Under the pieces are notes generated by a model. That model did not search any database. It was not told where the DNA came from and saw only the letters and a list, made by a program, of their open reading frames with translations. Shown here one piece after another: positions 1 to 33,112 of a stretch of DNA of 33,112 nt. The stretch comes from a virus (lineage: Duplodnaviria; Caudoviricetes). The position numbers were made by a program, and so were the translations under genes. Every line of letters begins with the position of its first letter. The stretch's first letter is position 1. The stretch is taken from the IMG/VR virus record IMGVR_UViG_3300020043_003697, positions 1-33,112 of that record, one strand, 5' to 3'.

Positions 1-121
1 GCCAAGGCCATCACCATTGCCAGAGCCGTCACCATAGCCAGAGCCTAAAAAGTCCACAAATTGTTTATTATTTATAGTCATTGATTCCTTTTGCAGCAAA
101 TGTTTAATAATTAGCCAGAGC
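1..121. repeat. Terminal direct repeat, identical to 32992-33112 (circular overlap; complete genome)
   Basis: gccaaggccatcacc...ttagccagagc is read identically at both ends (121 nt). The Gly-rich ORF runs through the junction, so this is most likely an assembler overlap of a circular or circularly permuted phage genome. Confidence 0.95.
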
Positions 122-314
122 TATAGCCATCGCTATAGCCATAACCAGAGCCTGAGCCATCGCCAGAGCCAGCGCCAGAGCCAGAGCCAGCGCCAGAGCC
201 AGCGCCAGCGCCGGAACCAGCGCCATCGCCAGAGCCTGAGCCAAAGCCATAGCCAAAGCCTGAGCCAAAGCCATCACCATAGCCATTTGCAAATTTTTTA
301 TTATTTATAGTCAT
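111..314 (-). CDS. Gly-rich (Gly-X)n low-complexity protein, copy 1 (67 aa, MTINNKKFANGYGDG...)
   Basis: Open frame of GSG/GAG/GYG/GDG dipeptide repeats. The ATG at 312-314 overlaps the end of the upstream gene, and the MTINNK start is shared with copy 2. Confidence 0.65.
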   Translation of the reverse strand: MTINNKKFANGYGDGFGSGFGYGFGSGSGDGAGSGAGAGSGAGSGSGAGSGDGSGSGYGYSDGYSSG

Positions 315-666
315 TGATTGATGTTTTCGCAACATCGCTACAAGGGATGAGTTCGCATACGCCATTTAACAAGATTTCTGGATTGAGTGTATCAATTTTG
401 CATGATTCACCTTGCAATCCTGTCTGCGCAACACCTGAGAGCGCCACGCCTTCATTAGCTTTCCAGGACCATAAGCGTCTAGAGTTTTTTAAAATCACGC
501 TTTCACCGTCTACGCTTACAACTTCACCAGCATGTACACCTGCTGAATAGCATCGAGCAATTACGTACTTACCTACAAATACGTGTTGAGCTTGATTCTG
601 AGTTTGCAAATTAAACATTGCCGCGATTTCTTTAATTTGGCCTAATGTCATATCGTTGATGTTCAT
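301..666 (-). CDS. DUF6948-like phage protein (121 aa)
   Basis: Start MNINDMTLGQ follows a TAGGAA SD-like sequence. The motif GKYVIARCYSAGVHAGEV...LKNSRRLWSW...LSGVAQTG is recalled as DUF6948-type. Confidence 0.75.
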   Translation of the reverse strand: MNINDMTLGQIKEIAAMFNLQTQNQAQHVFVGKYVIARCYSAGVHAGEVVSVDGESVILKNSRRLWSWKANEGVALSGVAQTGLQGESCKIDTLNPEILLNGVCELIPCSDVAKTSINDYK

Positions 667-28472: not shown

Positions 28473-28618
28473 TTTAATAAAACCATCCTTGTGACGTTGC
28501 GAGCGCACAAGGATGTATTGCAAGTTCATCCAACCACGGATTTTACCACTAACTTTTAATAATTATGCGCTGAATTAATTAAGTGCATAACTGTCAAATT
28601 TAACGGGTAGGGGTAGAC

Positions 28619-28966
28619 ATGTCTTTTAAAAAGAAAATAGAAGCAGAGGATGAAATGAGTCAAAAAACCAAAGAGTGGTTATCACAATTTACCGATTGGG
28701 CAATAAAATTAATGATTGTCGGTATTTTTGGGTTTGGCTACAACATGCAAAGAACACAAAATGAAATTGTTACTCAAATGGCCCTTAATATGCAAAGTAA
28801 TGAAGCGCGTGTTCTCGCTGTAGAAAAAGATGTTCAAGTTATTAAGGCTAACATGGTATCAAATGAGCGATTTTTGGATGTGCTTAAGAAAGTAGAGCAA
28901 CAATTAACGATTGTGTTGTTGCAATCTGGCATTAAACAAAAAATTGCGTTGGTTGAAGAAAAATGA
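28619..28966 (+). CDS. Single-TM membrane protein (holin/antiholin candidate); alternative start at 28655
   Basis: WAIKLMIVGIFGFGY TM segment followed by a coiled coil; overlaps the endolysin start; GAGG precedes ATG 28655. Confidence 0.55.
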   Translation: MSFKKKIEAEDEMSQKTKEWLSQFTDWAIKLMIVGIFGFGYNMQRTQNEIVTQMALNMQSNEARVLAVEKDVQVIKANMVSNERFLDVLKKVEQQLTIVLLQSGIKQKIALVEEK

Positions 28967-29382
28967 TTAATTCGCGAGATTTAAGCGCATTATTACCTGT
29001 TGTTGGAGGTAAAGCAATTGCATTCATAGATGGTTGTAAGGCGGCAGGAATAGACGTATTAATTACATGCACTTATCGAGACGATGAGTCACAGAATTCG
29101 CTATACGCGCAAGGTAGGACGGCCCTAGGCAAGATTGTTACTAATGCGAAAGCTGGCGAATCATGGCATAACCATCGATGCGCTTTTGACTTTGTTCCTA
29201 TAGTAAACGGTAAGGCACAATGGAATGATTTGGAATTATTTAAGCGATGTGGTGAGATAGCTGAATCTGTAGGGCTTGAGTGGTCAGGCAGGTGGAAAGG
29301 CAAGTTTAGAGAAATGGCGCATTGTCAATATACAGGTGGGTTAACTTTAGCTGATTTACAAAATGGCAAGGTAATAACATGA
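28963..29382 (+). CDS. Endolysin, M15 family (L-Ala-D-Glu peptidase-like)
   Basis: TYRDDESQNSLYAQGRT, VTNAKAGESWHN..AFDF and EMAHCQ zinc-peptidase motifs. Confidence 0.9.
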   Translation: MINSRDLSALLPVVGGKAIAFIDGCKAAGIDVLITCTYRDDESQNSLYAQGRTALGKIVTNAKAGESWHNHRCAFDFVPIVNGKAQWNDLELFKRCGEIAESVGLEWSGRWKGKFREMAHCQYTGGLTLADLQNGKVIT

Positions 29383-29585
29383 AATTAATTGATGAATGGA
29401 AGTCAGCATGGCGTTATCTTAGCGTTCAGGCTAATGCAATTGGTAGTGCAATGGCTATTGGCTATGCAAGCATGTACGATCATTTAAAAGAGAATTTTCC
29501 ACCTGAGTACATGGCAGGAATAACCGCGATTGTGTTTGTGCTTGGAATCATTGGGCGTTTAGTATCACAACAAAAAGACAAATAA
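29379..29585 (+). CDS. Holin-like protein with two TM segments (68 aa)
   Basis: MKLIDEWKSAWRYLSVQ...IIGRLVSQQ; two hydrophobic segments; adjacent to the endolysin. Confidence 0.75.
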   Translation: MKLIDEWKSAWRYLSVQANAIGSAMAIGYASMYDHLKENFPPEYMAGITAIVFVLGIIGRLVSQQKDK

Positions 29586-29589
29586 AATA

Positions 29590-29618
29590 TTGCATTATAA
29601 AAAATTGTTGCATATAAT
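29590..29618 (+). promoter_or_regulatory. Near-consensus sigma70 promoter
   Basis: TTGCAT (29590-29595), 17-nt spacer, TATAAT (29613-29618). Confidence 0.8.
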
Positions 29619-29623
29619 AATTC

Positions 29624-29985
29624 TTGTCAGTGGGGAGCGCTGATGATAAACTTTGATTAAAGCCGTTTAATAGTCTGTTTTCACGATGATTTTCATCACT
29701 TGCTCCCCAAGGAAAGCAGATTATTAAACGGCTTTTCTGTTTTTGGGTACTGTTCGCCACCTGACAAAGCAATGCGCCATGACACGGCGGCTAACAATAA
29801 AAGTGTTGCGCTTACTCACAAGACGGCGCGTTGGGCTTCGATGGGCATCAACAGGAACAGAGTAAATAGGTGATATGAGCGATTAGGCCGCGTAACGGTC
29901 ACTCTGGAAATAGAACATCGTGCGCGAGCAAGAACCACGGCAAATGGTTAAAGATGGTGTAGTTCACCTTCTTGTCTTGTGTGTT
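29624..29985 (+). ncRNA. Candidate large structured non-coding RNA (unassigned family)
   Basis: No credible ORF; starts at the expected TSS; many complementary segments with G-U wobbles favouring the plus strand (see findings). Confidence 0.6.
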
Positions 29986-30012
29986 GTCTTAAATAAAGCA
30001 AACTAACCTTAT

Positions 30013-30522
30013 ATGATTGCAATAATTTGGCATTTCCTGCGAACCATCAACCCACGTGTTTATCTTGGCATTGCTTTGTGTATCGCTACGTTATACGGCT
30101 TCCATATTCTCAAATCGAGATATATAGAGGAAGGAAAAGCGGCTGTATATCAAGAATGGAAAATAGCAGATTTAAAACGTAAAGAGCAAGAGAATAGCGA
30201 CCGTATCGCAGAGCAGCAGCACCAAGCGGCAATTAATCAACAAGTAAAAAAGGAATTAGAAAATGAAATCAATAAAATACATACTTCCTACGCTAATCTT
30301 AAGCGGCTGCGCTTGCCAAAATCCACCTGCGTCCAACCTGACAGCGTTACCACTGCCGCAGGCTCCAGCATCGCTAATGAAGCCACTGCCACCACCATTG
30401 CACTTCCAGAACCGATTGAACGCAATCTTTACGAACTAATGCAAGAGGTCGACACAATGTTAAGCAATTATCGTGCGTTGCAAGAGTTTGTAAAGTTAAA
30501 TAATTTAGCGCCTAACTTTTAA
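30013..30522 (+). CDS. Rz: Rz-like inner-membrane spanin
   Basis: N-terminal TM segment, coiled coil, RLRLP motif; contains an embedded lipoprotein gene. Confidence 0.8.
   Translation: MIAIIWHFLRTINPRVYLGIALCIATLYGFHILKSRYIEEGKAAVYQEWKIADLKRKEQENSDRIAEQQHQAAINQQVKKELENEINKIHTSYANLKRLRLPKSTCVQPDSVTTAAGSSIANEATATTIALPEPIERNLYELMQEVDTMLSNYRALQEFVKLNNLAPNF
30263..30439 (+). CDS. Rz1: Rz1-like outer-membrane spanin lipoprotein embedded in Rz (58 aa)
   Basis: Hand-translated +1 frame MKSIKYILPTLILSGC-ACQNPPASNLTALPLPQAPASLMKPLPPPLHFQNRLNAIFTN; lipobox LSGC; Pro-rich; AAGGA SD. Confidence 0.85.
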   Translation: MKSIKYILPTLILSGCACQNPPASNLTALPLPQAPASLMKPLPPPLHFQNRLNAIFTN

Positions 30523-30967
30523 AAGTTCTTAATAATTCGCTTAATTCTTCATTGGTAATTCTAGCTATATATTTTTTAGATAGTTCATCCCTTTGCGATT
30601 TAATGCAATTTGGTTTTGCACATGTGTAATCGCACCAGTGATAATCTTTGTCTGGATTATTAACTACTTGCTTAACTGGGCTTTTTTGTAAGTCAGTTAA
30701 TTTTTTTGGTTTGTCTAAATTATTTGAAACCAATGCAGCGTAACCCTCAATATCATGCCACGAATCAAAATTATTTGAATTTCCATTTATAATTCTAGCA
30801 ATCTTATGCACAATCATCTCCAGCGATTCTTTTTTGTCATGCGTTAAAGTTGACCAATTTTTGGAACTACGCATGACGTTTTTTAATGCTTGCGATATAG
30901 TGGACTGACCAGAATAATTACCATATTGAGACGATCTTTCTTGTATTGTATCCTTAATATTTTTCAT
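30512..30967 (-). CDS. DUF6378-like protein
   Basis: ERSSQYG...HKIARIING...DSWHDIEGYA motif (family recalled, not searched). Confidence 0.7.
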   Translation of the reverse strand: MKNIKDTIQERSSQYGNYSGQSTISQALKNVMRSSKNWSTLTHDKKESLEMIVHKIARIINGNSNNFDSWHDIEGYAALVSNNLDKPKKLTDLQKSPVKQVVNNPDKDYHWCDYTCAKPNCIKSQRDELSKKYIARITNEELSELLRTFKS

Positions 30968-32784: not shown

Positions 32785-33072
32785 TTATTTGATGTTTTCT
32801 TCATTGTTGCAGTTATTACATAAGCCTGAGCCATCGCCATCGCCATAGCCTGAGCCTGAGCCATTACCAAGGCCATTACCAAGGCCATCACCATAGCCAT
32901 CACCTGAGCCTGAGCCATTACCATAGCCTGAGCCTGAGCCAAGGCCTGAGCCAGAGCCAGCGCCAGCGCCATAGCCAGAGCCATGGCCATCGCCAAGGCC
33001 ATCACCATTGCCAGAGCCGTCACCATAGCCAGAGCCTAAAAAGTCCACAAATTGTTTATTATTTATAGTCAT
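32785..33072 (-). CDS. Gly-rich (Gly-X)n low-complexity protein, copy 2 (95 aa, MTINNKQFVDFLGSGYGDG...CNNCNNEENIK)
   Basis: AAGGAA SD before ATG 33070-33072 (equivalent to 79-81); long Gly-X tract; CxxC near the C-terminus. Confidence 0.7.
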   Translation of the reverse strand: MTINNKQFVDFLGSGYGDGSGNGDGLGDGHGSGYGAGAGSGSGLGSGSGYGNGSGSGDGYGDGLGNGLGNGSGSGYGDGDGSGLCNNCNNEENIK

Positions 33073-33112
33073 TGATTCCTTTTGCAGCAAATGTTTAATA
33101 ATTAGCCAGAGC
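32992..33112. repeat. Terminal direct repeat, identical to 1-121
   Basis: Exact sequence identity, read directly. Confidence 0.95.

Follow-up and report, generated by a model that had tools for sequence, protein, structure and literature searches.

Large bacterial RNAs that combine several pseudoknots with invariant unpaired nucleotides are usually ribozymes or parts of core machines, and to our knowledge new classes of large multi-pseudoknot bacterial RNAs are rare. Several described systems come close to the phage locus analyzed here. In P4, a short RNA from the untranslated leader pairs with seqA, leading to premature termination, as set out in the available text of two reports (PMC4825925, PMC10111431). 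The put RNA of HK022, in the portion of PMC9378689 accessible to us, is ~70 nt long, has two stems and acts in cis with no dedicated protein. The accessible part of Weinberg 2017 (PMC5737381) describes ARRPOF, PAGEV and GEBRO, structured motifs that contain no genes, span 223-349 nt and reside on mobile DNA; of these, ARRPOF and PAGEV are needed for plasmid replication (section 24), as well as GOLLD and ROOL, large structured noncoding RNAs in prophages to which that text assigns no function. The excerpted text of PMC9410906 reports that acr operons are strongly expressed early and then repressed. Finally, the available sections of Fremin 2023 (PMC10690425) report 10,006 viral csRNA candidates, each at most 151 nt.

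Here we analyzed a 33,112-nt stretch of phage DNA, referred to as the window, in which an insert between the holin and spanin genes carries a predicted leader followed by a structured body. The body is apparently a new, undescribed class of large structured phage RNA.

An optional, protein-free insert in the lysis cassette

The 33.1-kb phage record is complete, with terminal repeats. Its replication and recombination genes are lambdoid in type and include a P-like loader and a full-length initiator of 284 aa. There is also a P22-like head module, and endolysin, holin and Rz/Rz1-like spanins make up the lysis cassette. Gene order is lambdoid and HTH regulators are present; a tyrosine integrase was not found in the window genome. 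Glycine-rich low-complexity ORFs with 12-18-nt repeats flank the 121-nt terminal repeat (32785-33112 and 104-365, minus strand). Sequencing runs containing the region are mainly labelled freshwater metagenomes. The features of the lysis locus are as follows.

29379 to 29585, plus strand: holin gene (phrog_1356, E 7e-20), the upstream neighbour, outside the element
29582 to 30012, plus strand: whole insert; blastn against the relative L004 stops at 29581 and restarts at 30013, with 3 nt there instead
30013 to 30522, plus strand: Rz-like spanin gene (phrog_13, E 1.4e-6), the downstream neighbour of the insert
30263 to 30439, plus strand: Rz1-like ORF embedded in the Rz-like gene (phrog_3198, E 1e-3)

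A preliminary description of this locus, made from the sequence alone, had reported a gap with no credible ORF between the holin and the spanins. Our searches agree on both counts: the two longest ORFs in the gap (29586-30012), of 57 and 74 aa, match no PHROG, and the flanking genes match phrog_1356, phrog_13 and phrog_3198. It had also seen no hallmarks of tRNA, tmRNA or RNase P and no adjacent reverse transcriptase, and indeed ARAGORN found 0 genes in the window, Rfam scans gave no RNase P match and no reverse transcriptase occurs among the window ORFs. The GC enrichment claimed for the segment holds for its 3' half (0.50, compared to 0.38 and 0.42 in the flanking genes) but not for the gap as a whole (0.42).

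Relatives of the window phage were collected via the endolysin (73 loci), and in the closest of these, L004, identity to the window is 94.7% as far as 29581 and 87% beyond the insert, starting at 30013. In L004 the holin stop and the spanin start overlap, with nothing between them. The family model described below found no match in the complete L004 genome or in 36 other records (37 of the 73 endolysin loci were tested, with carriers L045 and L046 left out). Taken together, these comparisons show the gap to be an optional, protein-free insert that is independent of its neighbouring genes and, like a phage moron, adds a unit where relatives have the two genes side by side. With respect to signals of its own, the insert has a promoter-like site and a terminator inside the leader, with none at the 3' end. 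Comparison of the window with L004 revealed no target-site duplication at the insertion. The element is single copy in its genome, and a search of cultured phages with the window sequence gave no match to it.

In the sequencing run X1, 117 of 2001 nt differ from the window over 28600-30600, compared to 6 of 469 over 29560-30028. Of these six, one lies in the promoter spacer and another in an unpaired linker. Strong selection and recent lateral spread would both give such near-identity of the insert in diverged relatives. No transcript of the element was seen in the two RNA-labelled runs, which proved to be contigs: X19 is probably DNA, and X20 spans only endolysin to holin, leaving the gap uncovered, a lack of coverage that says nothing about transcription either way.

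Several further observations concern the surroundings of the insert. Only two spanin genes lie downstream, followed by convergent genes; a GC-skew turn near 30200 coincides with this switch in transcription direction and was set aside as a signal. No Shine-Dalgarno sequence is obvious at the spanin start after the insert (30000-30012), and in L004 that start overlaps the holin stop, so spanin translation may differ between insert-bearing and insert-free alleles. 3' of its spanin, L004 has an additional HNH-like ORF, hydrophobic at its N terminus (L004:4776-5108), that the window lacks, which points to a hot spot for insertions in the lysis cassette.

A body with three covarying pseudoknots

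Eight stem pairings had been proposed for the gap, and all eight can form where they were proposed (five perfectly, two with one G-U pair and one with a U-U mismatch). One of these, 29839-43 with 29916-20, had been read as a nested stem; the pairing stands, but it is rather a pseudoknot formed from a hairpin loop. Three features lie beyond the earlier list, namely the strongest helix (29659-82/29712-35, 24/24 pairs), the A:B pairing of the leader and a linker pseudoknot (29775-29807). The body (29770-29985) is ~220 nt long, 213-286 nt among members, and comprises a closing stem, three covarying pseudoknots and a near-invariant core.

29775 to 29807, plus strand: PK0, an H-type pseudoknot; hairpin 29775-78/29786-89, with loop 29781-85 pairing to 29803-07
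29817 to 29824, plus strand: P1 5' strand, closing the core with 29974-81
29922 to 29925, plus strand: P1b strand, pairing with 29826-29; short, and only partly supported across the family
29830 to 29852, plus strand: P2 hairpin with a bulged A; loop 29839-43 forms PK1 with 29916-20
29858 to 29906, plus strand: near-invariant core, in which P3 encloses the PK2 5' strand, a conserved single strand and P4
29858-63/29901-06, plus strand: P3; 90% of cells paired, with compensatory changes
29868 to 29873, plus strand: PK2 5' strand, within the P3 loop
29878 to 29885, plus strand: conserved single strand, within P3 and 5' of P4
29886-89/29897-900, plus strand: P4 hairpin, its 7-nt loop conserved; paired in 100% of cells, compensatory changes included
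29916 to 29920, plus strand: PK1 3' strand, just 3' of P3
29933 to 29949, plus strand: P5, a variable hairpin
29951 to 29973, plus strand: P6, a variable hairpin
29964 to 29969, plus strand: PK2 3' strand, within P6
29974 to 29981, plus strand: P1 3' strand, the predicted 3' boundary of the folded RNA

Long-range pairs were tested in an alignment-free manner, comparing each 5' window with its own 3' window and with the windows of other members. Pairing of P1 (n = 25), PK0 (n = 25), PK1 (n = 32) and PK2 (n = 25) was reached in 0/20000 permutations each, values that are not strict probabilities since relatives are not independent. Controls gave 16723/20000 for PK0, p=0.71 for PK1 (displaced) and 9048/20000 for PK2; in several cases of the PK0 test the hairpin finder picked a wrong hairpin. 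With 24 cores in an unfitted alignment, the share of paired cells is 86.8%, compared to 72.0% when shuffled and at most 41.6% when slid, and 64 cells bear two-sided changes; two of the five measures in this test were not above shuffles (161/500 and 62/500). Fifteen members align end to end, and scattered indels occur in the member alignments. Covariation was present in every core helix, establishing the helices and pseudoknots of the predicted body fold. Together with the empty site in L004, the absence of any hit at gathering threshold when the window was scanned with Rfam, tetraloops on the plus strand only and the lack of a reverse transcriptase in 17 carrier records, this result supports the preliminary description's view of the gap as a structured RNA module inserted like a moron. 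For its function, that description had listed several candidates with no preference among them.

Folding energies gave a complementary picture. The region 29620-29990 (371 nt) beats all 100 shuffles on either strand (z = -3.85 on plus, -3.27 on minus). The signal stems from domain 1, the leader (z = -8.5); domain 2, the core closed by P1, has z = -1.6 alone, and its structure therefore rests on covariation, not energy. Stable RNA-type tetraloops number 13 on the plus strand and 0 on the other across 24 members, which fixes the strand and argues for an RNA-level element. G-U pairs are frequent in the family helices. A terminator lies within 150 nt of the 3' end in only 4 of the 24 members, indicating that a discrete RNA would need processing.

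A predicted attenuator precedes the body

The leader (29624-29767) and its promoter comprise the following elements.

29590 to 29618, plus strand: predicted sigma-70 promoter; -35 at 29590-95 (3/6 consensus), -10 at 29613-18 (6/6)
29624 to 29646, plus strand: segment A and P0 5' strand; in prefix folding, forms alone a hairpin with an exposed loop
29659 to 29744, plus strand: terminator-like long hairpin, 29659-82/29712-35 (24/24 pairs), with U run 29733-44
29693 to 29709, plus strand: segment B, within the loop of the terminator-like hairpin
29761 to 29767, plus strand: P0 3' strand, pairing with the predicted 5' end (29624-30); seen in homologues by eye

The promoter hexamers, at 29590 and 29613 with a 17-nt spacer, lie where they had been claimed. 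Because its -35 element shares just 3 of 6 positions with the sigma-70 consensus, a consensus scan missed this predicted promoter; -10-like boxes occur at a similar distance in several homologues. Segments A and B can form 14 pairs in the window, through 29631-38/29702-09 (8/8) and 29641-46/29693-98 (6/6). In prefix folding the A:B helix (-24 kcal/mol) persists up to 29720, and the terminator hairpin (-35) replaces it from 29728. Since the terminator is favoured by energy at equilibrium, read-through would depend on kinetics. A and B both sit in exposed loops in the folded model of the terminated form. The best sense-strand partner of B is A (-24 vs -19.5 at the next site), and no seqC-like second downstream target of B was found, the best sense-strand partners all being at A. 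Terminator-like leaders were present in 16 of 32 members, 12 of which have a large loop that makes A:B testable. In these 12 leaders A:B pairing is cognate-specific and covaries (0/20000 permutations; one of the 12, L198, is probably a false call). Taken together, these findings predict that the leader is a kinetic attenuator in which A pairs with B of the terminator hairpin, as in P4 CI/seqA, a design that would support self-repression and two transcripts.

Members of the RNA family and their contexts

The founding homologue, in L045/L046 (nhmmer E 1e-10), supplied motifs for collection scans. A covariance model of the 108-position core, R1, was built on 24 sequences; the full body has 248 positions. 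R1 scored held-out loci such as L210, L159, L152, L162 and L140 full length (E 8e-19 to 4e-8), and further matches comprised eight loci at E < 1e-10, four at < 1e-7 and four at < 1e-20. Pattern and covariance-model searches gave 53 full-length loci, a count that reflects our own selection and includes a few weak loci (L144, L236, L254, L259); grouped by core identity, they fall into 40 types at the 90% level and 35 at the 80% level. Inspection or model scoring identified L077, L078 and most of L084-L143 as chance pattern matches, along with L146, L148, L149, L158, L168, L172, L180, L191, L193, L213 and L215.

Three of six bacterial pattern hits are members: an Ottowia prophage, a Rhodoferax MAG and, weakly, a Rhizobiales isolate. 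When R1 was run against 151 + 151 bacterial genomes it returned only the seed genomes, a negative that shows little because just 24 candidates per genome were scored; the search tool also missed the weak member L144. Searches with three other members found nothing over the body in phages or plasmids (plasmids were tested for two of them). Rfam 15 gave 0 hits in the window, with only sub-threshold chance matches (E>=0.75) over 29400-30200, and none over the element in 39 homologue loci, while the controls, RNAI (E 1e-11) and tRNAs, were recovered. In the literature searched, mostly freely readable papers and part of their supplements, neither the core motif nor a matching description was found. 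The core motif is likewise absent from the seven searchable supplementary files of Fremin 2023 (PMC10690425); since candidates there do not exceed 151 nt, only a fragment of the body could be listed.

Member sites are unrelated to one another. Some lie 3' of terminase, helicase, HNH or initiator genes, and others before small terminase, tail, SSB or primase-like genes. By rough ORF calls most are co-oriented with the next gene, and several lie within long late operons; L238 and L101 face convergent genes. A tRNA is present in only 3 of 35 loci scanned. Reverse transcriptase (PF00078) was found in 0 of 17 carrier records, many of them incomplete. There was no association with integrase (4/17 carriers vs 5/14 non-carriers), and the initiator C-terminal model was not enriched (2/17 carrier vs 2/14 non-carrier records). 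A C-terminal-only O-like initiator nevertheless lies directly upstream of the element in L150 and in the L212/L292 lineage. A truncated-initiator link considered for L101 was rejected, as its replication genes are on the opposite strand and the initiator is full length.

Two side observations concern individual members. In L150 an extra ~120-nt insert between leader and body (1593-1713) is similar (E 1e-9) to a part of Yersinia phage PY54 that has no annotation. What we take to be a short PqqA-like peptide gene with a terminator lies just upstream of the RNA in the phage group of L045 (3970-4040) and L080 (680-751).

The leader heads other bodies, and the core occurs alone

A scan for one leader type returned at least 120 loci, with 13 distinct true leaders among the matches listed. 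Among these listed matches, four leaders head the three-pseudoknot body, five a second gene-free family, three other gene-free bodies and one an ORF. Gene-free bodies of several unrelated kinds thus follow 12 of the 13, and R1 found no core in the other gene-free bodies behind the leader. The same terminase-like gene lies upstream in L326, which has the three-pseudoknot body, and in L302/L306, which have the second body. That one leader type heads several unrelated gene-free bodies points to a portable cassette with exchangeable non-coding cargo.

The second body, ~250 nt, gene-free and conserved, lies 3' of the leader match at ~1201 in L302, L306, L312, L317 and L350 and is a candidate second new RNA family, unrelated by R1. 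Three more differing gene-free bodies stand behind the same leader in L364, L292 and L370; that of L364 ends in a G-rich tract, and that of L292 follows a C-terminal-only O-like initiator gene.

The 24-nt strand-plus-P4 core was also found without the rest of the body. In four large-phage contigs (L188:3001-3067, L195, L200, L201) it is part of the 5' leader of a gene named, from its translation, as a family-B DNA polymerase gene, a placement that recalls the autogenous control of T4 gp43. L246, L261 and L264 (~1400-1523) share another structured leader that ends 3' in this core, and in L264 an SSB gene (named from translation) comes next. It also stands immediately before a tRNA-Arg gene (L192:2999-3021, minus strand), in a prophage tRNA region (L226:1501-1522), and upstream of a scaffold-like gene whose ribosome-binding site is covered by the core's closing stem (L211:636-658). 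Stand-alone cores keep P4 pairing and tolerate the same changes as full members; since they came from patterns demanding the core, their number is no test.

Discussion

The reading that we favour, while holding it at somewhat less than even confidence, is that the locus is an optional cassette with a self-limiting leader and a ~220-nt three-pseudoknot RNA that acts in trans on a conserved host factor early in infection. Judging from folding and the P4 precedent, A would pair with B in a newly infected cell before the terminator closes, allowing polymerase to read into the body. Terminated short leaders would then accumulate, and their exposed B loop would pair with A of new transcripts, switching the cassette off; the short leader would also silence any superinfecting copy. 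Two transcripts are predicted, a terminated short leader and a read-through RNA with the body. Based on distribution, the body may be an effector (decoy or modulator) for counter-defence or host take-over, with the invariant strand-plus-hairpin core as its putative binding site. We favour a trans effector because the cassette is dispensable, position-independent and very well kept where present, because its predicted regulation resembles that of entry-burst genes (acr operons, in the available text of PMC9410906), and because mRNA leaders reuse the core in the way expected of a binding site. The cargo's job appears to be the least certain part of this proposal.

A more general and still more tentative form of the proposal is a kind of protein-free moron, a promoter-attenuator cassette that would give an entry burst, silence itself by its truncated transcript and carry interchangeable RNA cargo. 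Here that cargo would be a three-pseudoknot RNA working through a small core, one that phages also reuse in DNA-polymerase and SSB leaders; by way of this core it would disarm or reprogram a conserved host machine or else prime replication.

The main rival to the trans effector, which we regard as a possible but rather unlikely explanation, is an RNA-primed origin with ColE1-like logic and an unrelated fold, in which an R-loop or primer would form at the body 3' end and the leader would be a copy-number or incompatibility RNA. A feedback leader of antisense type, placed in front of a structured RNA of ~250 nt, would suit such an origin. However, a direct resemblance to ColE1 RNA II was rejected, as R1 run over the ColE1 record with filters off gave a best E of 1.1, outside RNA II. 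In 20 of 24 members no 3' terminator lies within 150 nt, which is compatible with RNA II-type read-through, though not specific to it. ColE1 RNA II has a conserved G tract for a persistent hybrid; G runs >=6 occur in only 2 of 24 members, the longest G run in the window is 3, and no internal direct repeat with the body 3' end was detected (11089/20000; 24 members). Position independence would be expected of origins too, and gene-free plasmid replication motifs exist (ARRPOF and PAGEV, in the accessible part of PMC5737381), but no plasmid match was found for the two members tested. The C-terminal-only O-like initiator upstream of the element in L150 and the L212/L292 lineage would suit an origin, whereas the equal counts for the initiator C-terminal model in carriers and non-carriers do not. 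Moreover, the window phage has its own full initiator and loader, a close relative lives without the RNA, and an origin leaves the stand-alone cores in mRNA leaders unexplained.

Improbable in our estimation is a new ribozyme class, self-processing or acting on other RNA or DNA, whose active site would be the invariant junction and loop nucleotides. The compact multi-pseudoknot fold with invariant unpaired nucleotides, its gene-independent placement, and minimal cores that abut tRNA 5' ends and ribosome-binding sites all suit a catalyst. Nonetheless, no Rfam ribozyme or intron model matches, the alignments show no conserved boundary or splice-site motif, a target-site duplication was not found, and a promoter and attenuator of its own would be unusual for a self-cleaving RNA.

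We consider it quite improbable that the body is a cis-acting, polymerase-modifying antiterminator (put- or EAR-like) that aids transcription through downstream operons. The co-orientation of most members with the next gene (rough ORF calls), the several members inside long late operons and the stand-alone cores in operon leaders agree with such a role, but here the RNA is followed by just two spanin genes and then convergent genes, and L238 and L101 face convergent genes as well. Although put RNA needs no dedicated protein, it is ~70 nt long with two stems (both in the accessible portion of PMC9378689), and placing an antiterminator behind its own attenuator would be roundabout. Finally, we regard as very improbable an element that is selfish, or acts at the ssDNA level, and whose RNA serves no function in the phage. 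Recent lateral spread could account for the near-identity seen in diverged relatives, and no transcript was seen in the RNA-labelled runs, but tetraloops confined to the sense strand, frequent G-U pairs, the promoter and terminator design and the lack of a mobility gene (reverse transcriptase in 0/17 carriers) argue against it.

The trans-effector proposal yields a testable model. At ~220 nt the body is small enough to synthesise, 40 natural variants are at hand, and near-identical phages with and without the RNA provide a natural control. The modularity of the leader points to a larger repertoire of RNA-only accessory genes in phages, with at least one further unrelated body family seen. Should the body turn out to be a counter-defence RNA, an origin or a ribozyme, phage RNA would in each case gain a new molecular function.

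Comparison with known systems

ARRPOF, PAGEV and GEBRO are in Rfam; the cassette has no Rfam match, a phage distribution and a leader. Rfam scans gave no match to group I/II, RNase P, HDV-like, twister, pistol or hammerhead models, and reverse transcriptase, which would mark a retron, DGR, DRT or group II intron, was found in 0 of 17 carriers and in none of the window ORFs. Compared to GOLLD and ROOL, the body is smaller, has no Rfam match, is rarely near tRNA (3/35 loci) and follows an attenuator leader. Like HK022 put, it is a phage RNA with no dedicated protein; as put is described in the accessible text, the body is set apart from it by its 213-286 nt and three pseudoknots.

The cassette resembles ColE1 RNA I/RNA II in that a small control RNA would overlap the 5' portion of a longer structured RNA with no terminator at its 3' end. 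In contrast to ColE1, its control RNA would come from the same strand, and it has a phage distribution with no plasmid match (two members tested). With acr-aca operons the likeness is one of analogy only, an accessory cassette with its own strong promoter and an early burst followed by self-repression, as the available text of PMC9410906 describes; in the cassette, cargo and repressor would both be RNA.

P4 CI/seqA, P1 c4 and IsrK resemble the cassette in their constitutive promoter, untranslated leader and control by premature termination, according to the available text of PMC4825925 and PMC10111431. They also share a short RNA segment complementary to an upstream seqA-like site, which here takes the form of A:B. 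The cassette does not match the Rfam C4 or isrK models, however, and unlike P4 CI its intrinsic terminator encloses the antisense segment and no downstream seqC-like copy exists. Whereas read-through in P4 leads to kil, ant and replication proteins, read-through in the cassette would lead to a structured RNA.
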